64,000 bases of DNA from an uncultured Thermoplasmata archaeon (GCA_963768855.1 CAVYJM010000011.1:192001-256000), one strand, 5' to 3'. Shown: positions 15,378-48,819, counted from the first letter of the stretch. Notes: generated by a model from the letters alone, not told the origin. Translations and numbers: made by a program.

Positions 15378-15433
15378 ATAGCGCGATCTTCACTGCGCCG
15401 TCGCTCCGCCGAGCGGCCCGAAGGGCTATGCCG
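15378..15433 (+). repeat. Hairpin repeat copy 1
   Basis: CCGTCG-ctccgc-CGAGCGG-cccGAAGGGCTATGCCG; outer pairs CTTC/GAAG and ATAGC/GCTAT. Confidence 0.8.
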
Positions 15434-15512
15434 AGATGGCAAGTCGGGAAGCTTCGCGAATGGCCAAGGTCCTTCTAAGGGTCCGCCTTGGGCGGGAGCA
15501 GGCGCATCCAGC

Positions 15513-16271
15513 ATGGTCTCCGTGGTGATCGATTCCCGGTTCCAGGGGCTCAAGGACATCGCCCTCGGCGGCTACGTCGGCGGCGTCCTGGCGGGCGGAC
15601 GGGCCGCGGAGGTCCGCTTCCTGCGACCCGCGCCGGTCGGACGCCCGTTGCAGGTCGGGGACCGCGCGGACGGAACTACGGCTCTCTTGGACGGGAAGAA
15701 TCTCTTGGCCCTCGCACAGCCTGCGGACGTGGATCTAGACGTGCCCGCGCCGGTCACGGCGGAGGAGGCTGCGGCGGCCACCCAAAGCTACCCCGGGCTC
15801 GATCGCCACCTCATCCCGGCCTGTTTCGTCTGCGGCCCCGGACGGCGTGAAGGCGACGGCCTGCGAATCTTCCCTGGCCCCGTGCCGGAGCGTGACCTTG
15901 TCGCCGCGCTGTGGACGCCGGATGTCTCCCTGGGCGGCCCAGATGGATGCGTCGCTCCCGAGTTCGTCTGGTCCGCCGTGGACTGCCCGAGCATCTGGGC
16001 TCTGGTTCACCGAGCGCCGCCCGACTCCAAGGAGCGGGTCGTGACCGCTCGCCTCGCCCTCCGGCCCGTGGCGCCGCTCCGCGTGGGCGAGTCCTGCGTG
16101 GTGACGGGATGGGCCGTCGGCGGAGACGCCCGGTTCCAGGTAGCCGGCGCGGCCGTGCGTTCAGCGGAAGGTCGTCTCCTCGCCGTGGCGCGGCACACCC
16201 TCGCGTCGACGGACTGGGGCGTGCCGCTCGGCCTTGACAAGTGGGGGACCGATTCGCGCCAACCCGCGTGA
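15513..16271 (+). CDS. Double hotdog-fold (thioesterase-like) protein
   Basis: FQG....GGYVGG, LRPAPVG, CFVCGP, VWSAVDCP, VTARL. Confidence 0.7.
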   Translation: MVSVVIDSRFQGLKDIALGGYVGGVLAGGRAAEVRFLRPAPVGRPLQVGDRADGTTALLDGKNLLALAQPADVDLDVPAPVTAEEAAAATQSYPGLDRHLIPACFVCGPGRREGDGLRIFPGPVPERDLVAALWTPDVSLGGPDGCVAPEFVWSAVDCPSIWALVHRAPPDSKERVVTARLALRPVAPLRVGESCVVTGWAVGGDARFQVAGAAVRSAEGRLLAVARHTLASTDWGVPLGLDKWGTDSRQPA

Positions 16272-16381
16272 GAGTGCCTCCGCTTCCACGCTGTATGCCG
16301 CCCTGCTCCTCGTCGCCTCCCGGAGAAGAGCGCGAGTTGCTCGAGCGGGAGTCCAGCTATTCCTTCTGGATGCGCTGCGCG

Positions 16382-17362
16382 TCACCTCAAATGCTTCTGC
16401 AGGAACTCACGCTGCCGCTGGCTCGCCCGGTCAAAGACCGGACTTGGATGGTGGAGAAGGCCGAAATGACCTCCCTCCACCTCCACGAGTTCCTTGGGTC
16501 CCGAGGCCCGGTCGAAGGTCATCCGGGAGATGACGTCGCTTGCCCCGGGCATCTCGTCCCCCGGGGCGACCATCACGAGGAGGGGGACCTCGAGATGAGG
16601 GGTGCAGAGGGCGGGGTGCAGCGGGACCGACACAGCGGGGCCGCCGACAGTCGCCCAGTTTTCCCATCGGGTGCCGAAGCGGCCTCCGTACTCGATGAAC
16701 CATCGGAACGCCGTCAGCGGGGTGAGGAGCGAGGGAGCCCTGTGCTGGTCCGCGGAGACTACAGGCAGTGGGCCGGTCGTGGTCTCGGGCATGGTACGCA
16801 GGTCCCCGTGGAGGAGGGTCCCCTTAAGAGCTGCGAACAGCGAGCCGTTCGCGTCGGCGGGAGGCGGACCATCCCCGCAGGCGGGCACCTGCGCAACCAC
16901 CGCCTTCACACGAGCGTCGAAAGCCCCGACGACAAGAACCTCCGCGCCGCTCATGCTGTCGCCCCAGAGGGCGACCCGGTGGATGTCCACATCCTGTCTC
17001 TTGGCCAGGAAGTCGAGGGCATCGCGGTAGCCGCGAGCCTGCACCCACTTGTTGAGCTCCTGCCGTGGCTCGCCGCCGCTGATTCCGAGGTTGCGGTGGT
17101 CGTAGAGCAAAACCGCGAAGCCTGCCCGGTGGAAGACATCCGCGTAGGCATCGGCGACCATGCCCTGGATCGTTGCGGAGAAGCCGTGGGCCATGATGAC
17201 CGCGGGCGCGGACTCAGTCGCTCCCGCAGGGACATACAGCCTACCTCGCAGGGTCGCGCCTTGCGAGGGGAACTCGACTGCCTGGAACGCTGATTCCTGC
17301 GTCGGTCCTGGCGTCGGAGTCGTCCGATTTGGATGTGTCTCTCGCGGCGTCCTGCCTTTCAT
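16382..17362 (-). CDS. Alpha/beta hydrolase
   Basis: MAHGFSAT, YDHRNLGISGGEPR, WGDSMSG nucleophile elbow, GGHF; ATG overlaps the upstream stop. Confidence 0.85.
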   Translation of the reverse strand: MKGRTPRETHPNRTTPTPGPTQESAFQAVEFPSQGATLRGRLYVPAGATESAPAVIMAHGFSATIQGMVADAYADVFHRAGFAVLLYDHRNLGISGGEPRQELNKWVQARGYRDALDFLAKRQDVDIHRVALWGDSMSGAEVLVVGAFDARVKAVVAQVPACGDGPPPADANGSLFAALKGTLLHGDLRTMPETTTGPLPVVSADQHRAPSLLTPLTAFRWFIEYGGRFGTRWENWATVGGPAVSVPLHPALCTPHLEVPLLVMVAPGDEMPGASDVISRMTFDRASGPKELVEVEGGHFGLLHHPSPVFDRASQRQREFLQKHLR

Positions 17363-17814
17363 TCCAGCGCGCCTTCCCGGAGCTCCCAGAGGGCGTTGAC
17401 GATCAACCACCGCCTCTCCCCGAACTTGGCAAGATGAAGGTAGTCCACATACTGAGGCGAGACGCATCGGGCCGTGGCGACGTGGCGGAAGACATGGAGA
17501 ACATCAATCTGGTAGCCTCGCTGGGACGCGGGGACCTCGGTGCCGCCTCCCTGCCGAGTCGCCTCGACCATACCGTCGAAGGTGCTGGGACGCCTCAACT
17601 GCCAGGTCCCAGGCTCAGCGCCCGGGACGATTGTTCGCTTCACGAGATCCGGATGGAGGCAGCGGCGCATGCGTTCAGGGTCACCGTCGTACCACCCTCC
17701 GACGTAGTCCCGGATGGACTCAACGATGGAATCGTAGTCTTCCTGGGCCGGGAGCCAGTTTCCGCTCTCGGTGGACTTCTTCAGGTCATCGCCCCCCCGT
17801 TGAGAGGGCGGCAT
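17359..17814 (-). CDS. NTF2/SnoaL-like (lumazine-binding family) protein
   Basis: IRDYVGGWYDGDPERMRRCLHPDL, YVDYLHLAK..RWLIVNALW. Confidence 0.8.
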   Translation of the reverse strand: MPPSQRGGDDLKKSTESGNWLPAQEDYDSIVESIRDYVGGWYDGDPERMRRCLHPDLVKRTIVPGAEPGTWQLRRPSTFDGMVEATRQGGGTEVPASQRGYQIDVLHVFRHVATARCVSPQYVDYLHLAKFGERRWLIVNALWELREGALE

Positions 17815-18060
17815 ATTGTTCGGCCTTAACTCTTTTCCTCTTTAGCGTGGAAGGGGAAAGTGCCCGCACTTGCGGGTGGCTACCGGCACTGGCCGCATCG
17901 CGAGCAGTGCCACCGGCCGTTTTGCGGAATCTGGGCGAGGGATTGACCGCAAAGACTACAGCACGGCGGCCCGGTCCAAGGACCCTCAACCGTAGGACCG
18001 ATTCCCACCGGATGATCAGCGGGGATCGCTCGATACACGCGTGAGGCCACCTTTCGGTCC

Positions 18061-18145
18061 CGAGGAAGGTGTCCTGCCTCCGTCGCCCCCTCGCGGCCGG
18101 AAGGGCTTTGCCCGATGAGGTTCGAAGCCACATGACTTCGAACCA
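18061..18145 (+). repeat. Hairpin repeat copy 2 plus 11-6-11 palindrome
   Basis: GAGGAAGGTG..CCGTCG..GCGGCCGGAAGGGCTTTGCC, then AGGTTCGAAGC-CACATG-ACTTCGAACCA (18118-18145). Confidence 0.85.
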
Positions 18146-18194
18146 CTGTGGAAATGAAGGCCCGACGGAGAGCCATCGGACCTCTTGGGCCAGG

Positions 18195-18450
18195 TTACGT
18201 GCGTGCAGGCACTGGGATAGCTGGTTGGATTCCCGCGAGCATTCTGTCAACGACTTCCTGGAAGTCACGCAGGGAGCGTAGCTCGCCGGCTTCCATGGCG
18301 CGACGGCCATAGGCCTCCATGAGCTCCGTGTCACGCCCCACGAGGATTGCTTCGGCCTCCGGAAGGAGTTCCTCCTCGAGCTTGATGTGCTCGCGCTGCA
18401 TCGTCAGGTACGTGTGCGCGGCCTCGAGGAAGGCTCTGCCCGCGGATGGG
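18195..18450 (-). pseudogene. C-terminal fragment of a hemerythrin-like protein
   Basis: FLEAAHTYLTMQREHIKLEEELLPEAE resembles HI..E hemerythrin helices; upstream part is low-complexity. Confidence 0.5.
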
Positions 18451-18647
18451 TCCGTTGACCCGAGCCCGAGTCCGTCGCCCACCTTGGGCGTGTCTCCCTC
18501 GCTCCCTGCCCTTGGACGGTCTGTGGGAGCCCGCGGTGCGCCCCAGCCGAGCGTCTCGCATGACCCTCCCTTGAGGTTCTCCGAAAATTGCAACCCGGGT
18601 TTCGAAACCTTCTTAAACGCCGCGCGTCGCTACCACTCGGAAGGCCG

Positions 18648-19208
18648 ATGTCATTCGAAACGGAGGACTGTCAGCACCTCGTCGCGGACGCGGGAGCCAT
18701 CCTGGATCGGGACGGCGTGACGGAGGCGAGCTTGAGGGCCGTCGGCTCGCGGATGCAGCGTATCGCGGGCGCCTTCGAACCTCGCACGGTCGCGGGCCTC
18801 AAAGCCCTTCACGGGACGGGGTCCTCGTCCACGGTCCTCCACAGCGAATCCGTGGACGGGCTCACCCTCGCTCTATCCCGATTCCCCCCAGAGGCCGCGA
18901 CCCCGGTCCACAACCACGGGACGTGGGGCGTCGCCCTCGTGATCGAAGGCAGGGACCACCACATCCACTGGCGCCGGATGGATGACGGCTTGACCCCCGG
19001 GCGCGCCAGGCTCGAGATCGATGCCGACGAGATCGTCCCGGGGGGCGAGTTCGTCTCCTGGCTCGGGCCGCCGGGAGACATCCACAGTCAGCAGGGCGTC
19101 TCGGGGCCGGTGTACGAGCTCGTCCTCTTTGGCCGTAACGTGATGGTCCATCCCCGCCTGTATTTCGACCCCGCCGCGGGGACGGTCCGCGAGCGCTTGC
19201 CCCAATGA
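18648..19208 (+). CDS. Cysteine-dioxygenase-like cupin
   Basis: TPVHNHGTWGV, PPGDIH; TTCTTAAA box about 30 bp upstream suggests a leaderless transcript. Confidence 0.8.
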   Translation: MSFETEDCQHLVADAGAILDRDGVTEASLRAVGSRMQRIAGAFEPRTVAGLKALHGTGSSSTVLHSESVDGLTLALSRFPPEAATPVHNHGTWGVALVIEGRDHHIHWRRMDDGLTPGRARLEIDADEIVPGGEFVSWLGPPGDIHSQQGVSGPVYELVLFGRNVMVHPRLYFDPAAGTVRERLPQ

Positions 19209-19215
19209 CGGGGGG

Positions 19216-19257
19216 CCCCGCCCCCTCGCTCCCGAGCGGCCGGAAGGTTCGTATCCC
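19216..19257 (+). repeat. Hairpin repeat copy 3
   Basis: CCCCGCCCCCTCGCTCCCGAGCGGCCGGAAGG, 8 bp after the cupin stop. Confidence 0.85.
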
Positions 19258-19271
19258 CTGCGGATGATACT

Positions 19272-19607
19272 ATGTCGGAGCGGGTGCGTGTGAGAACCCC
19301 CCAGAAGGTGGGTGTGCTCGGCATCGTGCTGATTGTCGTAGGGGCATCCTTCACGGTTCTCCTTCCGTGGAGCGGGACGACGCTCAGCGGTGCCTCGTAC
19401 CCCGTAGGAGTCGCCTTCTTCGCGCTCGGCGGAGCCCTGTTCTTCGTCGGTGTTATCTGGGCATGGGTGGTCGGGTTTGCGAACGCCACACGGGCATGGG
19501 ATACGGTTCGACGGCCGCTGTTTTGCCCCGCGTGCGGCCAGCGGTATCCGGAGGAGCAGGGACACACCTGCCCGAAGGATGGCTCGGAACTGAGACCCGT
19601 GGCGTAG
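19272..19607 (+). CDS. Two-TM membrane protein with C-terminal zinc ribbon
   Basis: Two hydrophobic helices; CPACG...TCPKDGSEL. Confidence 0.75.
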   Translation: MSERVRVRTPQKVGVLGIVLIVVGASFTVLLPWSGTTLSGASYPVGVAFFALGGALFFVGVIWAWVVGFANATRAWDTVRRPLFCPACGQRYPEEQGHTCPKDGSELRPVA

Positions 19608-19613
19608 GTGACT

Positions 19614-19637
19614 CCGAGTCGGCCGGAAGAGCTACGC
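19614..19637 (+). repeat. Truncated hairpin repeat copy 4
   Basis: CCGAGTCGGCCGGAAGAGCTACGC, 6 bp after the stop. Confidence 0.6.
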
Positions 19638-20597: not shown

Positions 20598-20951
20598 ATG
20601 CTCGTGTTCGCCGCGATGTCGGGCTCGAGACCTCGGCTGCGGCGGTGGGGAGCCCTCCTCGGCCTCTTGGCCTTCGTCCTCGCACTCGTTGCGCTCCTCT
20701 ACGTCCTGGTGCTGCTCCCAGGAGCCGCGACTCAAGACATCGGGGCTCCCGCCATTCTGTACTCGGGCTTCTGGGGTTCCGGAGACTACTCATTCATGCA
20801 TGGAGGTGCAACCGTCACCTGGGGAGCAGGATGGGCCTGGTACGCGCTCATGGCCGCGGCCGTCCTGTCTCTGATTGGCGTCATCGTCCTGTTCCGCGCG
20901 CGGGCACCATCCTCCATGCAGGCCGCTCCGCAGGCAACACAGCAGCCGTAG
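20598..20951 (+). CDS. Small membrane protein
   Basis: TM segments around TWGAGWAWY; Gln-rich tail. Confidence 0.6.
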   Translation: MLVFAAMSGSRPRLRRWGALLGLLAFVLALVALLYVLVLLPGAATQDIGAPAILYSGFWGSGDYSFMHGGATVTWGAGWAWYALMAAAVLSLIGVIVLFRARAPSSMQAAPQATQQP

Positions 20952-20955
20952 TCCA

Positions 20956-21041
20956 GAGGAGAGTGCCCCCGCCCCGTCGTCCCCCGAGCGGCCGGAAGGG
21001 CTATGCCTCGAAGAGGTTCGAAGTCACATGGATTCGAACCC
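20956..21041 (+). repeat. Hairpin repeat copy 5 plus 11-6-11 palindrome
   Basis: GAGGAGAGTGCCCCCGCCCCGTCG..CCGAGCGGCCGGAAGGGCTATGCC, then AGGTTCGAAGT-CACATG-GATTCGAACCC (21014-21041). Confidence 0.88.
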
Positions 21042-21130: not shown

Positions 21131-21967
21131 GTGACGCCCATGGTTCCGAGGACCGCGGGGGATGCCTCTCAGCTCTGGACCGCCTTCCGCCACCAGTCTC
21201 TCTTCTACTTGCGGACGAACCGGTTCCTCGGGCTCCTCGCTGTGACTGTCGCCTTGGCCGCCGTTTTCCTTGCTTTTGAGCTGTATGCCGGGACCGCCTC
21301 GGTTTTGGCGACGAACCCGACAGCTTCCTCCTATCTCGCAGGGTCCCTTGGAAGCGTGGGGTTCAGCGTGGCCCTCACCGCCGCGTTCTTCGGAGGCGAT
21401 GCGATCGCGAGGGACTTCGGGAGCGCCACGGGGTACTATGTCCTCGTCCTTCCCGTGCGTCGGAGGGTCCTGCTCCTGGGACGGTACCTCGCAGCCTCCC
21501 TGGTCTCGTTCGGGGTCTTGCTCTCCTACTACGCCATCGCGGCGGCGGGCACCTGGTACTTCTACGGGGGCCTCCCCATGACCCTGGCGGCCTCCCTCGG
21601 ACTCGGGGCGCTTCTCACCCTCGCGACCGTGGCCTTCGCGTTCTTCCTGAGCTCCCTCTTTCGGAACCCGTCCGTGAGCATGATCGTGACCGTCCTCCTC
21701 CTCTGGATCGCCCTGCCTACCATTACCAGCGCTGTTGGCGAATTCGGCGGCATCGAGCCTTGGCCGTCTTTGTCCTACGGCAGTAATGTCGTCACCTTGG
21801 TCTTCGCAGGGAGCTACGCTCACGACTCCCTCATGACGATTGGCCCCCTAACGTTCCATGTCTTCCAGCCCTACATCTGGGAGGGGATCGCCATCATGAT
21901 CGCGTACCTCGTGATTTTCCTCGCAATCGCGGGCCTCCTGTACCGTTACAAGGAGGTCCGCGGATGA
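21131..21967 (+). CDS. ABC-2 type transporter permease
   Basis: Six TM segments; GGDAIARDF..TGYY..VLPVRR..LLLGRY. Confidence 0.85.
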   Translation: MTPMVPRTAGDASQLWTAFRHQSLFYLRTNRFLGLLAVTVALAAVFLAFELYAGTASVLATNPTASSYLAGSLGSVGFSVALTAAFFGGDAIARDFGSATGYYVLVLPVRRRVLLLGRYLAASLVSFGVLLSYYAIAAAGTWYFYGGLPMTLAASLGLGALLTLATVAFAFFLSSLFRNPSVSMIVTVLLLWIALPTITSAVGEFGGIEPWPSLSYGSNVVTLVFAGSYAHDSLMTIGPLTFHVFQPYIWEGIAIMIAYLVIFLAIAGLLYRYKEVRG

Positions 21968-22902
21968 CGTCGGGACCGAGCCTCGAAGCGGCCGACCTCA
22001 GCAAGGCCTACGCCCGCGTACTCGCGCTCGACGGCGTGTCGTTCCGGTACGAGGGGCCGGGGGCGATTGGCTACCTCGGGCCCAACGGCGCGGGCAAGAC
22101 GACGACCCTCAAGCTGTTCACGAGCCTCCTCCGGCCGACTCGCGGGCGGGCGTTCGTTGACGGCATCGACGTTGCGAAGAATCCGAAGGCGGCCCTCGCG
22201 GATGTGGGCGCATTGATTGAAACCCCCGAGCCCTACCCACGTCAGAGCGTGGAGGAGGCCCTGCGGATGGTGGGGGAGTTCCGGGGCATACCAGCTGAGG
22301 AACTCCGGGAGCAGATTGGGAAGTACGTCGAGGCTTTGGATCTTCCGCCCCTCGACGCTCGGATTGGCAGCCTCTCGAAAGGCCAGAAGCAGAGGGTCGT
22401 CTTCGCGGCGACGCTCCTCGGGGACCCACGACTGCTCCTCCTCGACGAGCCGACGAACGGCCTCGACCCGGCGGAACGGGTCCGGGTACGCGAGGTGCTG
22501 CGGGACCTCAAGAAGGACCGCCTCATCTTCATGAGCTCCCATCTGCTCCAAGAGGTCACGGAGGTCTGCGACCGCGTGATGTTCCTGAACCGGGGCAAGG
22601 TCCTCCTCGAGGACTCTGTCGCTCACTTGGCGGATCGGTTCAAGGCGACGCGGGTTGATGTGGAATTCAGTGCTCCGGTCGCCATGAATCGCCTCAGCCC
22701 GCTGCAAGGCCTAGCCCTAGGGGTCATGGCCCTCTCGGACCGCCGGCTGCGGATCGAGTTCGACGGATCCACGGAAACCCGCACGAAAATCCTCGTCGCG
22801 TGCCAGGCCGTCGGCGCCGTCGTCTCCTTCAGCAGCGCCGGCCTCGCGCTTGAGGATGCGTACCTCCAGCTGCTTCAGGGTTCAGCCAACGGCGGCCGTT
22901 AG
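21964..22902 (+). CDS. ABC transporter ATP-binding protein
   Basis: GPNGAGKTT, LSKGQKQR, LLLDEPTNGLDP, SSHLL. Confidence 0.92.
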   Translation: MTSGPSLEAADLSKAYARVLALDGVSFRYEGPGAIGYLGPNGAGKTTTLKLFTSLLRPTRGRAFVDGIDVAKNPKAALADVGALIETPEPYPRQSVEEALRMVGEFRGIPAEELREQIGKYVEALDLPPLDARIGSLSKGQKQRVVFAATLLGDPRLLLLDEPTNGLDPAERVRVREVLRDLKKDRLIFMSSHLLQEVTEVCDRVMFLNRGKVLLEDSVAHLADRFKATRVDVEFSAPVAMNRLSPLQGLALGVMALSDRRLRIEFDGSTETRTKILVACQAVGAVVSFSSAGLALEDAYLQLLQGSANGGR

Positions 22903-22961
22903 CCCCAGCAGGCAACCCACCGGGCGGGCCGCTCCAAACGCAACCCAGCAGCTGTAGCCAA

Positions 22962-23049
22962 GAGGGAAGGTGCCCTCGCCCCGTTCGCCCCCGAGCGGCC
23001 GGAAGGGCATTATCCCCGGTGAAGTGCGAAATCACATGGAATCGAACCC
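22962..23049 (+). repeat. Hairpin repeat copy 6 plus degenerate 11-6-11 palindrome
   Basis: GAGGGAAGGTGCCCTCGCCCCGTTCG..CCGAGCGGCCGGAAGGGC, then AAGTGCGAAAT-CACATG-GAATCGAACCC (23022-23049). Confidence 0.85.
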
Positions 23050-25485: not shown

Positions 25486-25645
25486 CCGCCGGGAGCACTC
25501 TCACACGAGGTCCTTTTTCCGGTAGCAGATGGGAAGGCCAACGGTAGCAACCTAACACTAGGTCGATCTTCCGGTAGCAGATGGGCCGGGGCTTATCCCG
25601 CTTCCACCCCATTTCCGCTCGCCGGAGCGGCCGGAAGGGCTATGG
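25486..25645 (+). repeat. tRNA-Glu 3'-end copy plus about 160-bp arm (direct repeat with 35944-36105), ending in hairpin copy 7
   Basis: CCGCCGGGAGCACTCTCACACGAGGTCCTTTTTCCGGTAGCAGAT identical in both; three CGGTAGCA boxes; CCGCTC-GCCG-GAGCGG hairpin. Confidence 0.88.
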
Positions 25646-25677
25646 CGTGACCGGTCGATGCGGCTGCAGGGGGTGGA

Positions 25678-26037
25678 GTGATGCAACCGAATACGACAGA
25701 AAGCGGTCCGTCCGAGACACCATGCCGCGCTTGCGGCTCATCTGCGCGGTTGGTGGGGACCGAGCAATTTCGTGTAGGAGGCACGTCCGGTGGCTGGAAG
25801 CTGCTGTTCGGTGAATGGGCCGAGCTGGGCGAGGAGATGATGCCCCTTGAGATGTGGGTGTGCCCTTCCTGCCGTCGAGTAGAATTCCGAGTCCCCGTGG
25901 GCTACAAGCGACCGGATGAGGTCGCGCGGGGACTGCGATACGCATGTCCAGGATGTGGCGGCGATGTTTATCACGGTCAGACCGCGTGTCCCGAGTGCGG
26001 CTACGTGTTGAAGGATTCCCCCACGTCAGAGGGGTAA
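25678..26037 (+). CDS. Double zinc-ribbon protein
   Basis: CRACG...VCPSCRRVEF, CPGCG...CPECG. Confidence 0.75.
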   Translation: MMQPNTTESGPSETPCRACGSSARLVGTEQFRVGGTSGGWKLLFGEWAELGEEMMPLEMWVCPSCRRVEFRVPVGYKRPDEVARGLRYACPGCGGDVYHGQTACPECGYVLKDSPTSEG

Positions 26038-26086
26038 GGTCCCCCGCCCCGTCGCGCCCGCAAGCGGCCGGAAGGGCAATGCCGGG
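26028..26086 (+). repeat. Hairpin repeat copy 8, overlapping the upstream stop codon
   Basis: GAGGGGTAAGGTCCCCCGCCCCGTCGCGCCCGCAAGCGGCCGGAAGGGCAATGCCGGG. Confidence 0.85.
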
Positions 26087-26183
26087 ACGGGCGAAGGGAG
26101 GATGGCGCGTCGCCGAACAACGACGAAGAAGGAGGAGGGAGGCTTACGCATGTTTAAGGTCTAGGGCGACGTCCACTCGGTTT

Positions 26184-26525
26184 ATGGCTAGACAAAAGCA
26201 CTCTGAACCCGCCCACGTTAGTGTACTTCGTGATGTACCTCCGGAGAATGCGTTCTACTTCTACGAAGGGATCGGTCAACCGACCGGTGTGGCTTCCAAG
26301 AACCTGGCTGAGTTCCGCGACCAGACGAAGGGCGCCAGTCCCACGTCCATCGAGTTTCACCTCGAGCGAGGCGATTTCGAGAACTGGTTCCGAATGTTGG
26401 GCGACGAGTCGCTCTCGCATCAGGTGGCCAATCTGAGGAAGCGAAGGCCCGCGGCCGACCAACTGCCCAGTCGTCTCTCGAGCCTTGTCGACTCGCGAAT
26501 CCGCCAGCTGCGGAGATCAGGGTAG
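26184..26525 (+). CDS. DUF5752-like protein
   Basis: LRDVPPENAFYF, SIEFHLERGDFENWF; family recalled from glucan-metabolism loci. Confidence 0.7.
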   Translation: MARQKHSEPAHVSVLRDVPPENAFYFYEGIGQPTGVASKNLAEFRDQTKGASPTSIEFHLERGDFENWFRMLGDESLSHQVANLRKRRPAADQLPSRLSSLVDSRIRQLRRSG

Positions 26526-34114: not shown

Positions 34115-35670
34115 TGCCGCCTCGGTTCGAGGACGCGGTGGGTATCCTCGAAGACGCCGTGCGGCGCTCGGCCGCCTTCCGTGTGTGGCTCCGTTCCCGC
34201 CGGTGGTGTGGCGAGACCGTCGGGATGCGCTCGGAACTGGTCGTGCGGGACTCCGCCCTGCTCGCTGCGTCGGGCACCGAGATGTTGGTGCTCATCCTCG
34301 TTCTCGCGAGGGAAGGCCCGTCCTCGGTCCTGCTCCATCTCCCGCTCTCGGTGGCTACCGCGCGGCTCGATCCCGAGGCCTTCGAGCTGTCGAGCGGAGC
34401 CGAGCGGTGGTACGTTGTGGAGGCGGAGCGGCGAGAGAGCTATGCGCGGTTCCTCACGGAGGGCCTGCGAAGGGGACTCCGGCTCCCCACGCGCGCGGGG
34501 GACAGCCTCCACTTTCGAGGGGAATCCGTCGGCGCCTTCCAATCCTTCGAGCCCGGGACCGAACGCGACAGCTCGAACCTCCTCGTCCATGTGGCCACCG
34601 CGGGCCTGGAGGTCGTGTTCAAGAGTTACAAGATCCTCGACCCCCAGAACCGGGAGCCTCGGATCCTGGAGCGTCTTCGCCGGCGAGGCTTCGCCCAAAC
34701 GCCGCGTTTCCTCGGCGAGGTCTCTCTGGGGCAAGGGGAGGCGCGCCTCGTCCTCGGGGTGGCGACGCAGAAGGTCGAGGCGGAGGATTTGTTCGCCTAT
34801 CTCGCCGGACGCTGGCGGGAGGAACTGGGACGGTCATCCCCGGTGCCAACCGACCTCGACCAGGTCACGCTGAGCCTTGCGGACGGGCTAGGCGAGGCGA
34901 CCGCGGCCCTCCACGACATCTTGGTTGATCGCAAGCCGGGCCCCTTCCAGGCGGAGCCCTTCACGCGGGAAGACGCCCAGGCGGCGTATCGCATCGCGGC
35001 ACGGAATCTCACGGATTCAGCCCGGCTCCTCGCGCGCCGGCACCAGGAGGGACGCGGGCTCCCGTCGGATCTGGCCTCCGAGTGCCGGGAGCTCCTCCTC
35101 GACCATCGGAAGGAGATCGAAGGGGTGCTTGGCTCTCTGGAAGCCTCTGTCGGCACGGTGAAGACCGTGACCCACGCGGACCTCCACCTCGGTCAGGTGC
35201 TTCGCTCGCGACAGGACGGATCCCTTTTCTACATCGACTTCGAAGGCGAGCCGGAGCGGTTGCCTGGCCAGCGCTCCGTGAGACTGCCGCCGCTCCGGGA
35301 TGTAGCCACGATGGCCCGTTCCTTCGCGTACGTGAAACACGGCGCATGGCGCGACTGCCTGGGGGGAGACCCTCGCGCCGCGTTGAAGGCCATGCGCCCG
35401 CACGATCTCTCCCCCGGACTGCGGGAGGTGCTGGGGCGACTGCAAGCATGGGAAGACGCCGCGGTCCGGCGTTTCTCGGGGCGATACCTCGCCCGCACCA
35501 GCCTGTATCCCGAGATCGACCAGGCCATGGCCCAGCGCATCATTTGGGGCTGGACGATGGAGAAAGCCCTCTACGAGCTCCGTTACGAGCTGAAGCACCG
35601 GCCCGCGAACTTCCTCATCCCGGTCGAAGGGATTCTGTCTCTCGCAGCCCCGCAGGTTCAATCACACTGA
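34114..35670 (+). CDS. Maltokinase (Mak/Pep2-like)
   Basis: SSNLLV, FKSYK, THADLHLGQVL, IDFEGEP, LRDVATMARSF, KALYELRYEL. Confidence 0.85.
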   Translation: MPPRFEDAVGILEDAVRRSAAFRVWLRSRRWCGETVGMRSELVVRDSALLAASGTEMLVLILVLAREGPSSVLLHLPLSVATARLDPEAFELSSGAERWYVVEAERRESYARFLTEGLRRGLRLPTRAGDSLHFRGESVGAFQSFEPGTERDSSNLLVHVATAGLEVVFKSYKILDPQNREPRILERLRRRGFAQTPRFLGEVSLGQGEARLVLGVATQKVEAEDLFAYLAGRWREELGRSSPVPTDLDQVTLSLADGLGEATAALHDILVDRKPGPFQAEPFTREDAQAAYRIAARNLTDSARLLARRHQEGRGLPSDLASECRELLLDHRKEIEGVLGSLEASVGTVKTVTHADLHLGQVLRSRQDGSLFYIDFEGEPERLPGQRSVRLPPLRDVATMARSFAYVKHGAWRDCLGGDPRAALKAMRPHDLSPGLREVLGRLQAWEDAAVRRFSGRYLARTSLYPEIDQAMAQRIIWGWTMEKALYELRYELKHRPANFLIPVEGILSLAAPQVQSH

Positions 35671-35943
35671 GCTGGCGGGCGGTTCGAGTGGTCTTCCTTC
35701 CGACCCGGCGGCTCGCCCGTGCGTGCATCGAGGACGAGGTCGTTCGCCTGCGCAAGAGTATCACCGAACCCATCCGCCCGCTCATGATTGAGCAGGTCCG
35801 GGAGGGGATGGAAGGGGTTCGCATTCGTCGATTCCCGTCCCTGATGCGCGCCCGAAGTGCGGCTTCAAGTCTCAGGATGAGGCCATGCAACCTGCACACA
35901 TTTTGGAGAGCCAATCGGGATTGGGTCTTGGAGTGCCCACTCA

Positions 35944-36105
35944 CCGCCGGGAGCACTCTCACACGAGGTCCTTTTTCCGGTAGCAGATAGGAAGGACCGC
36001 GGTAGCAGCCTCACACTAGATCGATTGTCCGGCAGCAGAGGGGCCCGGGGGCTATCCCGCCTCCACCCCGTTCCCCCTCGCTCTGAGCGGTCGGCAGGGC
36101 TTTGC
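35944..36105 (+). repeat. tRNA-Glu 3'-end copy plus arm (direct repeat with 25486-25645), ending in hairpin copy 9
   Basis: See the 25486 copy; ends GAGCGGTCGGCAGGGCTTTGCC. Confidence 0.88.
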
Positions 36106-36177
36106 CGGGACGGGTTCCGAGCGGCATGTGCGAAATCTTTGAATCCCCGCAGGTCGATGTCAGTCCGAGGTGGAGAG

Positions 36178-36651
36178 ATGCGGAAGGATGTCCTCGGAAT
36201 CGTCCTGATGCTTCTCGGCGCGGGCTACCTCATCGGAGCTGCGCTCAGCGTGGTTGGAAACACAGCTTTGGGCAATCCTATCCAAGACGGGTTCCTCTTC
36301 GAGTTGCTGGCGTGGGGGTTGGGCGGAGCCGCGGTGTTGGTTGTGGGACTCGTCGTGCTCCTTCGGAGTCTCCGGCGTCCCGTATCCCCGCAACCTCAAC
36401 CGATGCCGAGGATGGTCGGTCCGCCGTCGATGAACGAGTACAGGACTCCGTGGTCGGCGATTGCGTTCCTCCTCGTGCTCTTGCTCCTTGCCGCCCTGTA
36501 TCTGGTGTTGGTTTTCGTGTCCGCCGGGATAGCTGGGGTGTTGCTCCAGTTTGTCTTCTTCCTCCCCATCATCGCCGTCCTCCTCGTCCTTGCCCGCTGG
36601 TGGTCGAGGTTGGCGAGTCCCTGGAACGAACCTCCGACCTCCCTCCGGTGA
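36178..36651 (+). CDS. Four-TM membrane protein
   Basis: Hydrophobic segments; ATG after GAGGTGGAG. Confidence 0.7.
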   Translation: MRKDVLGIVLMLLGAGYLIGAALSVVGNTALGNPIQDGFLFELLAWGLGGAAVLVVGLVVLLRSLRRPVSPQPQPMPRMVGPPSMNEYRTPWSAIAFLLVLLLLAALYLVLVFVSAGIAGVLLQFVFFLPIIAVLLVLARWWSRLASPWNEPPTSLR

Positions 36652-36658
36652 GGTGCGC

Positions 36659-37084
36659 ATGGAACCAAGGATTCCGTCTTGGCTTGCCCAAATTGTCAGC
36701 TTGGTCCTCATGCTCGTGGGATTCGGTCCCATGGCCGCCGGGGTCCTGTACCAAGTGATTTCCGGGGGTCCTCCCAACTTCGCCTTCTACCTGCCCTATG
36801 CTTCTGCCTTCGTCGCTGGGCTGGTCGTCTTGTTCTGGGACCGTCAGAGGCAACCGTCGGAACCGCATTCGACCGGGACGGCGTCAAGGGTCCTCTACTC
36901 CCGGATGACACTGGCCTTTCTCGGTCTTCTCGTCGTCGCTCTCGCCGTCGCTGTCGTATGGTCAACTGAACTTCAGGGGAGCATCGTATGGTACTTGCTC
37001 TCGGTGTTCGTAACCGCCGGGTTGTGGGGCTCCCTGTTCAGCGGGTGGGGCTGCTACAAGGCCGGCGGCCGTCTCCGCGCGTAG
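36659..37084 (+). CDS. Four-TM membrane protein
   Basis: Hydrophobic segments; ATG after GAGGTG. Confidence 0.7.
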   Translation: MEPRIPSWLAQIVSLVLMLVGFGPMAAGVLYQVISGGPPNFAFYLPYASAFVAGLVVLFWDRQRQPSEPHSTGTASRVLYSRMTLAFLGLLVVALAVAVVWSTELQGSIVWYLLSVFVTAGLWGSLFSGWGCYKAGGRLRA

Positions 37085-37093
37085 AGGTTCTTG

Positions 37094-37140
37094 GCCCCGC
37101 CTCGTTCTCGTGCCCAAGGGTCGGCCAGAAGGACTTGCCG
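37094..37140 (+). repeat. Degenerate hairpin repeat copy 10
   Basis: GCCCCGCCTCGTTCTCG..GGGTCGGCCAGAAGGACTTGCCG, 10 bp after a stop. Confidence 0.55.
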
Positions 37141-37287
37141 CCGGCGAGTCGCCCAAGTTGCCTCTAGAATGCTCGCCAAGTCGCCTAGAAAGCCCTAGAA
37201 TCGGTCCGGACCGAAAAGCCATACCCAGGGGTGGATTTGTATTTCTTCAGCACACCCTTGGGAGCAGAGCCTACCGCTAGTTGGCAC

Positions 37288-37300
37288 CCCGCCGGGAGCA
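37288..37300 (+). repeat. 13-bp copy of the tRNA-Glu 3' end (att-like)
   Basis: CCCGCCGGGAGCA equals tRNA 15295-15307. Confidence 0.7.
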
Positions 37301-37366
37301 CTCCTTTCGGGTTCTGGATCTGTGGGTTCCGGACCCACCCTGCGTCTCATCGACCCGGAGCCAGGT

Positions 37367-37402
37367 CCGTCGTCGTCCCGATCGCGAGCGGTCCGCGGAA
37401 GG
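37367..37402 (+). repeat. Degenerate hairpin repeat copy 11
   Basis: CCGTCG..CGAGCGG..GGAAGG about 67 bp after the att-like copy. Confidence 0.55.
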
Positions 37403-37436
37403 CGACCGAGGGCGCTTCGGTGCAGCCGGCTTCCGC

Positions 37437-37649
37437 GTGAGGCCCGCAAAGACGCAAAGGACAAACCCCTCGCCGTACCTCTGGTGGCTGATCATGCTGC
37501 ACCTCGCGGACCGGGACGGAAACGCATTCTGCGGAGCGACGGACGGCGCTCGCACGTTCGAGTACGAGCGAATCGACTGCCCGGATTGCATCCGGATGAT
37601 CCGGCAGGCCGAGCTGCAGGACCGTCGAGACGGAAGCGGTGGAGGATAG
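37437..37649 (+). CDS. Small putative zinc-binding protein
   Basis: H..D..G..FCG...IDCPDC; start uncertain. Confidence 0.45.
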   Translation: MRPAKTQRTNPSPYLWWLIMLHLADRDGNAFCGATDGARTFEYERIDCPDCIRMIRQAELQDRRDGSGGG

Positions 37650-44589: not shown

Positions 44590-45933
44590 GTGAATCCCGT
44601 TCTCGTGGTTCGAGTCCCAGGGAGAGGCGGGCGCGGGGCGAAGTACGTCAGCCTCCTGGCCGATCCCTCCATGGAGCGATGGCATCGGAACGTGGCCCGC
44701 GGATCCCAGATCACCGCGGACGTGTACCTTCGGCGACTGGGTCATGTGTGCGCGACCCGCGGTACCTCGCCTGCCGCCCTTCTGACAATGAGTTCGAAGG
44801 AGCGGCGCGACTTCGCCGCGGACCTCGTCTCGGATATGGAAGAGGCGGGCCGCGCGGGGAGCTACGTCCTCTCCACCCTGCGTGCGATCAAATCGTGGCT
44901 CGCGTTCAACGGAGCCGCCCTGGAGCATCCGATCAAGGTCCGGGGTGCGCAGGCGACACCCACACTGGAGAAGGAACGCGTGCCCACGCAGGACGAGCTT
45001 CGGCGGATTCTCCTCGCCGCTTCGCCTCGGGAGCGATGCGCGGCCGCCCTGCTGGCCCACGCGGGTCTGCGGCCGGAGACCCTGGGGAACTACCGTGGAA
45101 CGGACGGGCTTCGCCTTGGCGACCTCCCGGACATACGGATCAAGGGCAAGATCGTGGCCTTCAACAAGCTGCCCGCCCAGGTCGTCGTCCGTCCGGAGCT
45201 CTCCAAGTCCGGCCGGAGGTACTTCTCGTTCCTCGGCCCCGAGGCCGCCGACTACCTGAAGGCGTACCTCGAGGAACGGATGCGGGACGGGGAACGCTTG
45301 AACGAGGAGAGCGACGTGATCGCCCCGGCGTGGTCCACGAAGGCCTTCCTGACGTCCATCAACGTGAGCGACGCGGTGCGGAAGGCGATCCGCGTGGCCG
45401 GCTTCCGCTCCCGGCCCTACGTCCTCAGGGCGTACTTCGACACCCAGCTCCTGCTCGCGGAGAGCAAGGGGAAGATGACCCACGCCTACCGGCAGTTCTT
45501 CATGGGCCACGTCGGGGACATCGAGGCTCGCTACACGACGAACAAGGGCCGCCTACCGCCCGACCTCGTCGAGGACATGCGCGACGCGTACCGGCGGAGC
45601 TTGTCGTTCCTTGAGACGACGAAGCCGACGGACCGCGAGGGGGAGCTCAAGGCGTCCTTCCGGCGGCAGATGCTCCTCGTCGTGGGCCTCGAGGAGAAGG
45701 AGATCGGGAAGATGGACCTCGACGGGATGAGCGACGCGGACCTCCAACGGATCGTCCGGGAGCGGCTCGTGGGCGCTTCCGGTGGCGCCGGCAACGGTTC
45801 CGTGAATGGGCCCCCGAATGGCTCACGCCAGACGATCGTCGCCCTGTCCGCCGTGGAGACTTACCTCGAGCGCGGCTGGGAATGGGTCGCGCAGCTGCCC
45901 GACGATCGCGCGGTGCTCAGGCACGTCGGTTGA
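44590..45933 (+). CDS. Tyrosine recombinase (site-specific integrase)
   Basis: Catalytic set GLRPETL (R), YVLR (Y replacing H in H-x-x-R), FMGH, ARYT (Y); N-terminal SAM-like domain. Confidence 0.9.
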   Translation: MNPVLVVRVPGRGGRGAKYVSLLADPSMERWHRNVARGSQITADVYLRRLGHVCATRGTSPAALLTMSSKERRDFAADLVSDMEEAGRAGSYVLSTLRAIKSWLAFNGAALEHPIKVRGAQATPTLEKERVPTQDELRRILLAASPRERCAAALLAHAGLRPETLGNYRGTDGLRLGDLPDIRIKGKIVAFNKLPAQVVVRPELSKSGRRYFSFLGPEAADYLKAYLEERMRDGERLNEESDVIAPAWSTKAFLTSINVSDAVRKAIRVAGFRSRPYVLRAYFDTQLLLAESKGKMTHAYRQFFMGHVGDIEARYTTNKGRLPPDLVEDMRDAYRRSLSFLETTKPTDREGELKASFRRQMLLVVGLEEKEIGKMDLDGMSDADLQRIVRERLVGASGGAGNGSVNGPPNGSRQTIVALSAVETYLERGWEWVAQLPDDRAVLRHVG

Positions 45934-46144
45934 GCAGGATCGTCCAGACCTCCATCTTCGCGAGGAACTCCGGGGGTGTCAGGACATCACGCTCGGCGAG
46001 GATCACCGAGCGGAGGGGATGATCGTCGGGGAGATGGGCGAGGACGAAGTCCTTCAGCCTGTGGATGGACACGGCGGAGATCCCGTGGAGGGCCGGCGGT
46101 GCCTCGACGGAAACGGATCGAGGTCTACGAGGTCCGCGGGGCAT
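45917..46144 (-). CDS. Small hypothetical protein
   Basis: LKDFVLAHLPDDHPLRSVILAERD..EFLAK..W. Confidence 0.55.
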   Translation of the reverse strand: MPRGPRRPRSVSVEAPPALHGISAVSIHRLKDFVLAHLPDDHPLRSVILAERDVLTPPEFLAKMEVWTILLNRRA

Positions 46145-46838
46145 CCTTCCGCATCGCCTCCTTCCTCGTGCTGCGTGATTTGCTCAATGAACAGCCCACG
46201 AGGCATAGGCGGCGCGCGGTCGTCCGTCCGACGCCCAGGGTCCGGGCCACCTGAGCCCAGGAACGTCCGCTCCGGCGCAGCTCAAGCGCCCTGGCGGGCA
46301 GACCGGGGTCCCGGGCCAGAGCGGAGACCCGGGCGCGTCCCCAGAGGAACGGCTTTCCGCGTCTCGCGGCCTCGGCACGGCGGGCCGCGATCCCCGCTGC
46401 GACGCGCTCGCCGATCGCTCGGCTCTCGAACTCGGCGGCCCACGCCAGCACGGCGAGGATGAGTTCCGCCGTAGGTGCGTCGGGATCCCACCACGTCTCG
46501 CAGACGGAGTAGACCCGAACCCCGGCACCTTGCAGCGTCTTGAGGACACGGAACATCTCCGCGATGCCTCCGCGCGTGAACCGGTCCAGGCGGAAGACGA
46601 TCAGGATTTGGAAGCGGTGCATCGCCGCGTCGTGGAGGAGCTTGCGGAGGACGGGACGATCCCGTCGTCGTCCCGAACCCTCCTCCTCGTAGACCGTGAC
46701 GCCGCGGAGGGAGAACCCGAGCCGCTCCACCAGCTCCCGGCACGCGTGGACCTGGGTCTCGAGACCGTGACCTTGGAGCTCTCGTCCCGTCGAGATGCGC
46801 GCGTAGATGGACGCGGAGCGCGCAGGTCGGTCGACCAT
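46125..46838 (-). CDS. Serine recombinase (resolvase/invertase) with C-terminal HTH
   Basis: IYARIST..Q, EEEGSG, LIVFRLDRFTR, FESRAIGERV..G, SWAQVARTLGVGRTT. Confidence 0.9.
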   Translation of the reverse strand: MVDRPARSASIYARISTGRELQGHGLETQVHACRELVERLGFSLRGVTVYEEEGSGRRRDRPVLRKLLHDAAMHRFQILIVFRLDRFTRGGIAEMFRVLKTLQGAGVRVYSVCETWWDPDAPTAELILAVLAWAAEFESRAIGERVAAGIAARRAEAARRGKPFLWGRARVSALARDPGLPARALELRRSGRSWAQVARTLGVGRTTARRLCLVGCSLSKSRSTRKEAMRKDAPRTS

Positions 46839-47107
46839 CAGCCCTCCCCGTGCCGCGAATCCGCGGGGTGTACAACCCCCGCGGGGGCCTGGGGGTCGCC
46901 CTCCCTGCCCGCCGGGGGCTCTGCGGGGTGTGAAACCCCCGCCCGGCGCATCTCGAGGCATTCCTGGAGGTATGCGCCCAGGGCCTTGGACAGGGTCGCG
47001 TACCCGCGGTCGATCATGAAGCGGGCGAGTTCGTGGAAGACCTCCTCGCTCACCACGCCCGCGATCCGGACGAATCCCTTCCTTAGACGACCCGTGGGCA
47101 TCAGCAC
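46838..47107 (-). CDS. Small ribbon-helix-helix-like DNA-binding protein
   Basis: FVRIAGVVSEEVFHELARF..RGYATLSKAL..YL pattern. Confidence 0.5.
   Translation of the reverse strand: MLMPTGRLRKGFVRIAGVVSEEVFHELARFMIDRGYATLSKALGAYLQECLEMRRAGVSHPAEPPAGREGDPQAPAGVVHPADSRHGEG
46863..46942. repeat. Two palindromes GCGGGGTGT(AC/GA)AACCCCCGC 60 bp apart
   Basis: Copies at 46863-46882 and 46923-46942; related palindrome at 48645-48662. Confidence 0.6.
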
Positions 47108-47207
47108 CGCCTTCGCTCAGAGAGGCGTGGCGTCCACGCGACGGGAACGGCGGGTGCTGATGTCGTGGTACTCATTCCCGGGCCGGGACGCCGTGGTGAA
47201 CCTTTAG

Positions 47208-47234
47208 GGTAGCGAAAACGCTACCTGGGTAGCG
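47208..47234. promoter_or_regulatory. Triple GGTAGCG box (direct-inverted-direct)
   Basis: GGTAGCG-AAAA-CGCTACC-TG-GGTAGCG directly upstream of the HTH gene. Confidence 0.6.
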
Positions 47235-47245
47235 GTGCTGATGTC

Positions 47246-47905
47246 ATGGAGCCCAAGAATGGAACCCGTCCGGATGCACGGCGAGATCGCGGCCTCGCGA
47301 TGAGGCGTAGGATCCTGGGATGGCTGCCCGTGGATGGCCCACCCCTGCGAAGCAACGACCTCTTCCGCCGTGCGGAGCGAGAGCGGATCGCGAAGACGAC
47401 GGTCTTGCGACACCTGCGCGAGGCAGAGAGGGAGGGAATCGTCCTCTCCCATCGGGCCGTTGCGAAAGGGAGGTCTGTCGTTGCTTACCGCCTGGATTTG
47501 GACTCCATGTTCCCCTACGGCAATCTCCGGAAGAAGCTTCTAGCGTTCGGACGGGACACACCGGGCGATCGCCGCGGGCTGTTCATCCCCACGCGGCGGG
47601 AGGACTTCGTCAAGTTCGTGCGGTTGCATACGGACCTCCTCGTCCTTCACCTGAACCGCCTCCTGGTCGATGCGACGGAGATGCCGACGGAACGGGGAGC
47701 CGAGGCGCGGGCCCAGCTCTTCGTGGACCACACCCTCCATCTCTGGCTTTCCTGGCTAGCGGTGGCTGCGTGGCGACGGCGGGATTTCGGCGAGGAGGCC
47801 ATCGATGAGGGGATGCGCGACATCCTCAAGGCGGTGGCCGGGGACGCGGACCGGCGCACGAAGGCGAAACCGAAGCCACCCGAGCGCGCGGGCGGCTCAC
47901 CGTGA
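47246..47905 (+). CDS. Winged-HTH-containing protein
   Basis: LRSNDLFRRAE..RIAKTTVLRHLREAE..G..V..YRL. Confidence 0.65.
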   Translation: MEPKNGTRPDARRDRGLAMRRRILGWLPVDGPPLRSNDLFRRAERERIAKTTVLRHLREAEREGIVLSHRAVAKGRSVVAYRLDLDSMFPYGNLRKKLLAFGRDTPGDRRGLFIPTRREDFVKFVRLHTDLLVLHLNRLLVDATEMPTERGAEARAQLFVDHTLHLWLSWLAVAAWRRRDFGEEAIDEGMRDILKAVAGDADRRTKAKPKPPERAGGSP

Positions 47906-48780
47906 CGAGCACCGGCGACGGGATGTCCTGGGGTTCCTAAGGATTCATTCGATCCGCAGAGCTCATTGGCGAAGGGCGACGCCCGCGACCGCGCTGTACG
48001 AACGGCAAGGCGGATTCGAAGCAACGAGGCAACGGTCGCGGTCGCGCTCGAGCGGGCTCGTGCGGCCTCGGGTATCCTACGTGGCACTTGGCGGAGGCGG
48101 TCTGTGCGCTGGCTTTGTGAAGAGTAAAACGACCTCCTATGCCAAAAAATCTGGGCCGTCGCACTCCGGTCCGACGCGAACCCGTCTCTTTAGGTTCCTC
48201 CGCGCGCCCGACCTAGGCCAAGCGCGTTGATCATCGACTGCGCGCAAGAGGGTTTGAGGAACATACGTTCCTGTTCGGGTCAGGTGGCATCGGAGCGGTC
48301 GGAACGAACCGTACCCGTTTTCCTGTTCAGTATTTGATCGTTTAGCAAGTGGATGTCCCGATCGTGCGCTCCGTTTTGGCCTCGGGTAGCTCGATACCGG
48401 AGGTATCGAGCGTATCTAGAGATTTACCTAACATACGAGGCTGGAGCCTGAAAAAAAGAAACAAGAGGGTCTCTCGCACGGTGGGTTCGAGCACGCGGCC
48501 CTCTATATGGAGAGAACGGGCTCCTGACGAGATCCGGATGAGCGCTCGGATGTGTCACGTACAGCCCGTTGCTATTTGAATCGTGATGCCGCGAATGCTG
48601 TGATCGCGTCGCTAATGCGCGGGCACCCGTGGAAGACCATCTCGGAGGGGTGTAACACCCTCCCGGGCTCTCTTCGCCGTGAGGGATCCGGCGGTCACCA
48701 ACGCATGTAGTGAGCTACTAACGCCCCGCCACCACAGGCACCCTCGAAGTCACCACGATGACTTCAGGTCGGAACGAGAG

Positions 48781-48819
48781 CTTCTTTGCTTGCTCCGTCG
48801 CCCCGAGCGGCAGAAGGGC
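48781..48819 (+). repeat. Hairpin repeat copy 12
   Basis: CTTCT..CCGTCG-CCC-CGAGCGG-CAGAAGGGC. Confidence 0.75.

Follow-up and report, generated by a model that had tools for sequence, protein, structure and literature searches.

What is the short repeat that stands, always in the same direction, before one small gene after another in this archaeal DNA, and how did the genes come to lie behind it? The question is raised by a 64,000-nt stretch from an uncultured Thermoplasmata archaeon (GCA_963768855.1, CAVYJM010000011.1:192001-256000), which is called the window here and which corresponds to C11:192001-256000 of the metagenome-assembled genome (MAG) labelled G000. The original prediction had taken the repeat for a family of bulged hairpins acting as recombination sites of an integron-like gene-capture system. 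The present analysis leads to a different view, in which the repeat is most likely a shared promoter module and not a folded integron site. The explanation that we favour, and consider probable although by no means secure, is that a lineage-specific promoter module heads mobile gene cassettes that enter at promoter cores.

G000 comprises 2.87 Mb at 66% G+C, with an estimated completeness of 93.6% and contamination of 7.7%, and the sequencing run that contains the window DNA is labelled freshwater sediment metagenome. Repeat copies were sought with a sequence-only covariance model (R1) built from 22 full copies and run on the window with filters off. Two alignments were used, one of the 22 full copies (59 columns, mean column identity 71%, higher in the core) and one of 73 copies drawn from G000, its relatives and metagenome contigs. 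A promoter profile was learned from 862 protein-gene upstream regions of G000. Rfam at gathering thresholds returned three tRNAs only.

Repeat Family and Distribution

The full consensus, GGTGCCCCCGCCCCGTCGCCCCCGAGCGGCCGGAAGGGCTATGCCGGGACGGG, extends over about 55 nt and includes a near-invariant part, CGGCCGGAAGGGC, with conservation maximal over GAGCGGCCGGAAGGGC. Some copies consist of the left half only, others of the core and right half only. In the window, R1 detected eight strong copies (E 5e-15 to 3.5e-6) and three marginal ones, all on the plus strand (Table 1), and the right-hand 18-mer of the originally proposed consensus occurs eight times against 0.31 expected. Of the 12 same-strand copies listed earlier, eight are thereby strong and three marginal, and at position 37367 R1 with filters off found no repeat match. 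Several copies were also correctly described as beginning at or near stop codons, since they start 2–15 nt past same-strand stops (for example, those at 19208, 20951 and 26037). The copy at 25617 shares 176 nt at 85% identity with the copy at 36 kb. As a separate observation, a stretch of about 125 nt, running from the final codons of the preceding gene through the repeat and an adjoining palindrome, occurs twice at 80% identity, once on each side of an ABC transporter gene pair (20918-21041 and 22924-23049).

Genome-wide, iterated nhmmer searches recovered 33 copies in G000, and R1 recovered 31. About 25 of the 33 are clustered, with 2–7 copies per cluster, on C4, at C6 325k, C6 875-886k, C6 1069-1071k, C7 76-78k, C7 128-131k and C8 5-7k, and in the window. 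Several clusters adjoin tRNA genes, directly in the case of tRNA-Thr, at about 90 nt for tRNA-Glu and at about 190 nt for tRNA-Arg. The expectation that copies would concentrate in tRNA islands is therefore borne out in a broader form, as most lie in small variable islands, several of them beside tRNA genes.

Among other genomes, R1 matches were found in 12 of 36 from the same genus and, as a weak match, in one of 24 from other genera of the order. Copy numbers track kinship, and the clade nearest to G000 by identity of a conserved gene (gene B, described below) is the richest, with 27 copies in G013, 10 in G009 and three in G036; most of the other genomes have 0–3. Outside G000, the exact 22-nt core is present in a single genome record, which is that of G009, and in 11 metagenome contigs; viral contigs yielded no match to it. 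Arrays of five co-oriented copies also occur on independent metagenome contigs. Within G000, three contig ends (C4 1-1672, C8 1-5009 and C6 1122166-1127194) share 1.7–5 kb at 97–99% identity and part ways exactly at repeat arrays (C4 1688; C8 5387-7129), which suggests either strain-level array variants in the sampled population or assembly breaks at repeats.

The proteins encoded downstream of the repeats are mostly small ORFans, membrane proteins or zinc-ribbon proteins, and searches of Pfam and PHROGs gave no family for most of them. Exceptions with recognizable families are the ABC-2 permease and ATPase pair at 21140-22902 of the window and a TATA-binding protein (TBP) paralog on C7. The repeat, with 71% mean column identity over 59 columns and more in the core, is thus found upstream of unrelated genes. 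In addition, a conserved 40-codon, K/R-rich open reading frame (ORF; MTGKGRKGSRTLQRGQQKSRKWKRRQQRR...), which has a TATA box of its own, stands immediately 5' of a repeat copy in four different contexts (Table 1), the two together preceding four different genes.

The Repeat Core as a Probable Promoter

The most conserved repeat block, CCGGAAGGGCTATGCC, matches the profile of the TFB recognition element (BRE) and TATA box of G000 itself and faces the downstream gene. The profile learned from protein genes has the consensus GAAAGGTTTATG, with a mode 35–39 nt before the start codon. Scored in the correct register, the repeat core GGAAGGGCTATGCCGG reaches 5.7, compared with a median of 4.98 for the real promoters of the 862 genes and a 95th percentile of 5.0 for the best site in random 80-mers; the resident promoter at an insertion site on C6 scores 7.2. 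All copies are co-oriented with the downstream ORF. In four of them the start codon lies 38–40 nt from the beginning of the motif, which is the distance of leaderless genes, while other copies are followed by 10–25-nt leaders with GGAG-type Shine–Dalgarno (SD) sites, and a few ORFs begin more than 100 nt away. Transcription would be predicted to begin about 23 nt past the repeat TATA. The original prediction did not recognize the invariant core as a BRE/TATA-like promoter facing the downstream gene, and it is in this core, not in the proposed hairpin, that the joints described below fall.

Several further observations concern promoters in G000 and the surroundings of the repeat. A BRE/TATA motif peak at 35–39 nt before annotated starts is seen for 196 of the 862 genes, and because of this spacing leaderless mRNAs are taken to be the commonest class in this genome. 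Upstream regions of its tRNA genes carry CGGAAAG-N-CTTTATA about 31 nt before the mature 5' end. About 12 nt past three window copies (at positions 18118-18143, 21014-21040 and 23022-23047) lies an 11-6-11 palindrome of the form GGTTCGAAG, CACATG-type spacer, CTTCGAACC. It overlies the predicted transcription start, its arms resemble a tRNA T-loop, and its form suggests an operator for a regulator that binds as a dimer.

The left half of the repeat is C-rich, measures 30 nt and often spans the gap back to the preceding stop codon, with a purine-rich, GGAAGG-like stretch on its 5' side. It is conserved across species before unrelated genes. It may act as an upstream control site, as a 3'-end element of the gene before it or as a recombination arm, and a G-quadruplex or a Rho-like C-rich terminator were considered as further candidate roles. 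The possibility that it represents the start of a reverse-strand gene was rejected, as the frame stops after 11 codons.

Inserts, Empty Sites and Cassette Re-Use

One insert was found at the C6 325k locus of G000. Genes A (201 aa) and B (256 aa) lie 40–55 nt apart, with no repeat between them, in all 29 of the same-genus relatives fetched; only in G000 does a 1,060-nt insert, with a 236-aa gene and two copies of the repeat, come between them. In its unoccupied form the site has the sequence ...GCGAAGGGCTAA/ATACCGGG..., and AAGGGCTAA serves both as stop codon of A and as BRE/TATA of B. The 10-mer GAAGGGCTAA, the resident promoter core, is perfectly duplicated at the two ends of the G000 insert and is identical to the repeat core at 9 of 10 positions.

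Conversely, relatives contain seven repeat-bearing inserts of 0.5–4.2 kb at places where G000 has none. Five of the seven lie between imperfect, 10–17-nt duplications of the resident BRE/TATA (Table 1), and the insert ends have no sequence in common. In one of these inserts, the 4.2-kb segment of G009:C8 (site empty in G000 at C6 1083992), a tRNA-like T-arm was noted on the minus strand just inside the right junction (L064, about 8190-8290).

Individual cassettes also recur at different places. A unit made up of the repeat, a 115-aa gene and a convergent 48-aa zinc-ribbon gene stands beside tRNA-Thr on C6, again on C8 and in part on C7, and it is also contained in an insert of G009 at a position on C12 that is unoccupied in G000. 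The cassette at C6 1071168 reappears in an array on G013:C158, with homology that starts exactly at CGGAAG and ends at GGCCGGAAG. At the tRNA-Thr flank, G000 agrees with the distant relative G018 through the left half, the core and CTATGCC and then diverges, and a repeat copy lies about 90 nt past tRNA-Glu in G000 and G013 alike. These comparisons sustain the original claim that repeats bound small cargo units: cassettes have been gained and lost relative to sister species, and the same cassette occupies different loci and species. The suggested check for shuffled cargo likewise gave a positive answer, with cassettes individually mobile between arrays, loci and species.

Other loci were less informative. 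In the window, the segment at 35670-37455 is absent from the orthologous site of G009:C4, where a match to position 35645 is followed within about 20 nt by a match to 37455; the insert is real, and its joints carry no clean duplication. Upstream of the glycogen cluster (window position 26882) every relative shows a different synteny, so that a clean empty site is lacking, and at C11 418k the contigs of relatives break at the site. A repeat-free indel on C8, considered as a control insertion, proved to be a replacement and was set aside. Reads of the single DNA run gave short, low-depth contigs only, and the sole joint among them belongs to another repeat copy.

Proposed Mechanism and Points Against It

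According to the favoured explanation, the repeat would be a promoter module of about 55 nt with a BRE/TATA core of the type used by G000, directed at the downstream gene. The genes that it heads behave as cassettes, which species of one genus have gained, lost and placed at differing chromosomal sites. The joints lie in or next to the promoter core, and a resident promoter that receives an insert ends up duplicated over 10–15 nt, with one copy on each side, so that incoming and resident genes would each keep a promoter. Arrays would probably grow by repeated entry at promoter cores, and joining could proceed by short-homology recombination between similar promoters or through a recombinase.

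Several points weigh against this explanation. Every genome compared is a MAG, and the contamination estimate for G000 was given above; the inserts were ascertained through repeat matches, and the junctions are few. No clear duplication flanks L066 and L059, which are among the seven inserts in relatives, and the duplications in the relatives are imperfect. A profile derived from tRNA promoters scores the repeat core at about 0, no better than random, so the TATA part (CTAT) is considered weak, and the promoter assignment therefore rests on the protein-gene profile, orientation and spacing. A separate, canonical TATA comes after at least one copy, the one heading the TBP gene, and transcription starts are predictions from sequence. 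Finally, a promoter role leaves the conserved left half unexplained. Three cassette pairs are homologous only between the core and the stop codon; past the stop, one genome continues into a left half and the other, which lacks it, into unrelated sequence. Since its presence differs within these pairs, the left half is an optional, separately inherited module.

Alternative Explanations

A stronger version of the same idea is possible but doubtful. It holds that the archaeon possesses a dedicated gene-capture system, which inserts cassettes into BRE/TATA cores and duplicates the promoter, so that a captured gene would be expressed at once and the resident gene would retain its own promoter. The C-rich left half and the dyad centred on CGGCCG would then serve as the cis site of a recombinase, or of an enzyme guided by promoter-bound TBP and transcription factor B (TFB).

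A dedicated site-specific recombination site, at which a recombinase swaps cassettes at a fixed point in CGGCCGGAAG and the likeness to a promoter reflects targeting or expression, is rather unlikely. Its site would have a CGGCCG centre and the equidistant, imperfect inverted arms CCCGCCCCGTC and GCCGGGACGGG, although the pairing and symmetry of these arms do not exceed those of shuffled controls. Left-half-only copies all break within CCGGA/A/G/G and most right-half-only copies begin with CCGGAAGG, but the latter may be ordinary promoters, and breakpoints also occur 3' of the TATA and at stop codons. The boundaries of the cassette shared by G000 and G013 lie at the core on both sides, the left half is conserved across species before unrelated genes, and the perfect 10-nt duplication at C6 325k equals the repeat core at nine of ten positions, all of which would suit such a site. 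The duplications, however, consist of resident promoter sequence that varies from site to site, no recombinase gene stands beside any array, and neither candidate family tracks the repeat.

Also unlikely is that the repeat is simply the promoter or operator of a fast-evolving paralogous family, spread by tandem gene duplication with divergence of the coding parts and no special mobility. Such a family would account for the 5' untranslated region and first codons shared by the MQP genes (C6 325848, C6 886122 and window position 25617) and by the 115-aa paralogs, for variants such as GAGTCGG that neighbouring copies have in common, and for the many products that are small membrane proteins without a family. 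It fits poorly with downstream genes as unrelated as those for TBP, an ABC-2 permease and a zinc ribbon, whose non-homology is demonstrated in part, with an insert that parts two genes lying next to each other in 29 relatives, with seven other, unrelated insert sites, and with the occurrence of one cassette in different loci and species.

A selfish repeat of the repetitive extragenic palindromic (REP) or miniature inverted-repeat transposable element (MITE) kind, or a transcription terminator, with no part in expression or capture, is very improbable. The repeat is indeed short, GC-rich and intergenic and often comes right after a stop codon, but it invariably points the same way as the gene that follows, its copies are gathered in islands and not scattered, and there are no terminal inverted repeats, stable hairpin or T-run. 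The usual marks of REP and MITE sequences, namely a palindromic hairpin or terminal inverted repeats, occurrence in either orientation and dispersal, are accordingly absent.

Also very improbable is the proposal with which this locus was first described, that of attC-like, single-strand folded sites of an archaeal integron served in trans by the integrase of the tRNA-Val island. The same-strand arrays between small ORFs, the copies at stop codons and a consensus that can be drawn as a short bulged hairpin speak for it. However, RNAalifold on the 22 copies returned only a 4-bp local helix with zero compensatory changes, and six copies folded as DNA adopted differing structures with z-scores of -1.7 to +0.6, no better than shuffles. 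The named hairpin with its outer helix was 65.4% paired against 64.7% in shuffled alignments, and an alternative CCCGTC/GACGGG helix 66.4% against 66.2%. The outer CTTCC/GGAAG pairing, which had seemed to covary, was only 54% paired. With 73 copies the hairpin rose to 80.7% paired against 76.6% shuffled, an excess that is regarded as an alignment artefact because it comes from a single pair, in which the GAGTCGG subfamily, displaced by one column, makes up the "C-G" class; covarying pairs and pair types did not exceed shuffles, and the alternative helix fell below its own. A structured, folded recombination site is thus not supported, since covariation is lacking. The absence of attC-type RYYYAAC/GTTRRRY ends, already pointed out in the original prediction, was confirmed in the consensus of both the 22 and the 73 copies.

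The distribution of recombinases does not favour trans service either. The family of the integrase at 44590 occurs in 8 of 37 genus genomes, including the copy-free G003 and G023, and the search did not recover it from G013 (27 copies, 98% complete) or from G009 (10 copies). A repeat copy does lie in the integrase-bearing tRNA-Val element, as had been stated, but it is marginal (48791, E 0.022). No tyrosine recombinase gene (PF00589) stands beside any G000 array, and the same search revealed no integron integrase with attI next to an array. The resolvase family of the tRNA-Val island is present in 35 of 37 genus genomes and is therefore not discriminating. An att repeat would duplicate the 3' part of its tRNA gene, but the repeat downstream of tRNA-Thr and tRNA-Glu copies neither of them, and its arrays lack an integrase. 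The repeat also places a promoter at the 5' side of each gene, where integron cassettes are promoterless. The integron proposal is largely refuted.

Features of the Window and Its Surroundings

The coordinates of repeat copies, recombinases and related features are collected in Table 1. The window island at 15.3-26.8 kb, in which no integrase was found, also encodes an alpha/beta hydrolase, a lumazine-binding-like protein, a zinc alcohol dehydrogenase and Hsp20. G000 has four TBP paralog loci (C7 129110-129658, C6 149.2k, C11 134.8k and C24 1.5k, the last possibly broken), one of which has a repeat copy in front of it. The place immediately 5' of the glycogen cluster, where G000 carries the cassette array, is taken in G009 by a TBP paralog.

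Table 1. Repeat copies and associated features; positions refer to the window unless a contig or locus is named.
Feature	Position	Strand	Details
tRNA-Glu heading main array	15233..15307	+	
Repeat copy	15394..15439	+	40.4 bits, E 1.6e-11; 87 nt past tRNA-Glu; heads ORF 15513-16271
Repeat copy	18072..18118	+	38.1 bits; 11-6-11 palindrome next
Repeat copy, left half and core, variant TATA GGTTCGTATCC	19214..19247	+	23.4 bits; 6 nt past stop 19208; heads ORF 19272-19607
Marginal repeat copy, core only	19614..19636	+	10.2 bits, E 0.048
Best full repeat copy	20965..21015	+	51.6 bits; 5' of ABC-2 permease/ABC ATPase pair 21140-22902 (Pfam)
Repeat copy	22972..23011	+	39 bits
Repeat copy, core and right half, different left side	25617..25656	+	37.4 bits; heads Zn-ribbon ORF 25681-26037 via SD-bearing leader
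Full repeat copy	26040..26092	+	47.9 bits; 2 nt past stop 26037; then ORF 26184-26525
Segment with 36066 copy and two small genes, absent from orthologous G009 site	35670..37455	+	
Repeat copy	36066..36115	+	36.2 bits; heads membrane ORF 36178-36651
Marginal, decayed repeat copy	37094..37134	+	10.3 bits, E 0.048; past stop 37084
Divergent tyrosine integrase beside tRNA-Val	44590..45933	+	phrog_1 E 1.3e-8; no Pfam match at E 0.01
Serine recombinase (resolvase) in tRNA-Val island	46125..46961	-	PF00239 E 3e-30; family in 35 of 37 genus genomes
Marginal repeat copy within tRNA-Val island	48791..48819	+	11.4 bits, E 0.022
PF00589 locus in G000	C6 1041571		
PF00589 locus in G000	C6 128330		
PF00589 locus in G000	C12 105892		
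PF00589 locus in G000	C18 112748		
PF00589 locus in G000	C11 26543		
PF00589 locus in G000	C7 32083		
Relative-insert duplication 1			AACCCTTTTT, reverse complement AAAAAGGGTT
Relative-insert duplication 2			AATCCCTYATCCC
Relative-insert duplication 3			AAAGGGATTCGCG, reverse complement CGCGAATCCCTTT
Relative-insert duplication 4			CCGCAAACCCTYAT
Relative-insert duplication 5			GCACTTRTYATTCTC
K/R-rich ORF context	C7 128806	+	
K/R-rich ORF context	C6 ~875.7k	-	
K/R-rich ORF context	G009:C8 (L064 ~4400)		
K/R-rich ORF context	G009:C104 (L065 ~5270)		

Significance and Comparison with Known Systems

The acquisition of single genes by archaea is poorly understood outside viruses, plasmids and the few reported integrons. 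The loci described here offer concrete pairs of filled and empty sites, in which small genes enter at a promoter and newcomer and resident each end with a promoter copy. If general, such a process would account for the single intergenic repeat that runs through arrays of unrelated small genes in uncultured archaea, and it would provide a simple route to the immediate expression of newly acquired genes. The R1 model may serve as a search handle for such variable islands in metagenomes. A literature search of incomplete coverage turned up no account of gene insertion with duplication of the resident promoter in archaea.

Integrons and clusters of attC sites lacking an integron integrase (CALINs) have been reported from archaeal MAGs with canonical folded attC sites and IntI, the attC lying at the 3' end of promoterless cassettes, folding as a single strand and bearing R and L boxes, and IntI cutting beside attI (Ghaly et al. 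2022, PMC9668308). The arrays studied here resemble them in that one repeat family separates short, mostly unknown ORFs of the same direction, often with no integrase nearby, and in that cassettes are gained, lost and shared between genomes. They differ in that the repeat has a 5' promoter, no conserved fold, no attC boxes and no IntI, and in that inserts duplicate ordinary promoters. All the sequence-level defining features of integrons that were tested fail, and only cassette mobility is held in common.

As in tRNA-linked islands, arrays start beside tRNA genes (Glu, Thr and Arg), and the window has a tRNA-Val island with an integrase. Unlike in such islands, the repeat does not reproduce the 3' end of a tRNA, the units measure 0.4–2.7 kb and carry no integrase, and many inserts lie far from tRNA genes. 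A more distant likeness is to yeast Ty3, a retroelement with its own integrase and long terminal repeat ends that targets the initiation sites of RNA polymerase III. Insertion aimed at a TBP-bound promoter, with a short target duplication, may be common to both, a likeness that serves as a lead only.

A counterpart is also found in the putative mobile promoters, defined as sequences of at least 50 nt, about 80% or more identical, that occur upstream of unrelated genes within or between genomes (Matus-Garcia, Nijveen & van Passel 2012; PMC3575422). This was a descriptive survey of mainly bacterial material, in which insertion junctions, promoter-duplicating target sites and arrays were not reported (PMC3575422). 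The repeat family of G000 and its relatives fits this descriptive definition and adds to it junctions, duplications and arrays. Taken together, joints inside promoters and the gain, loss and movement of cassettes are pointing to an undescribed route of gene capture.

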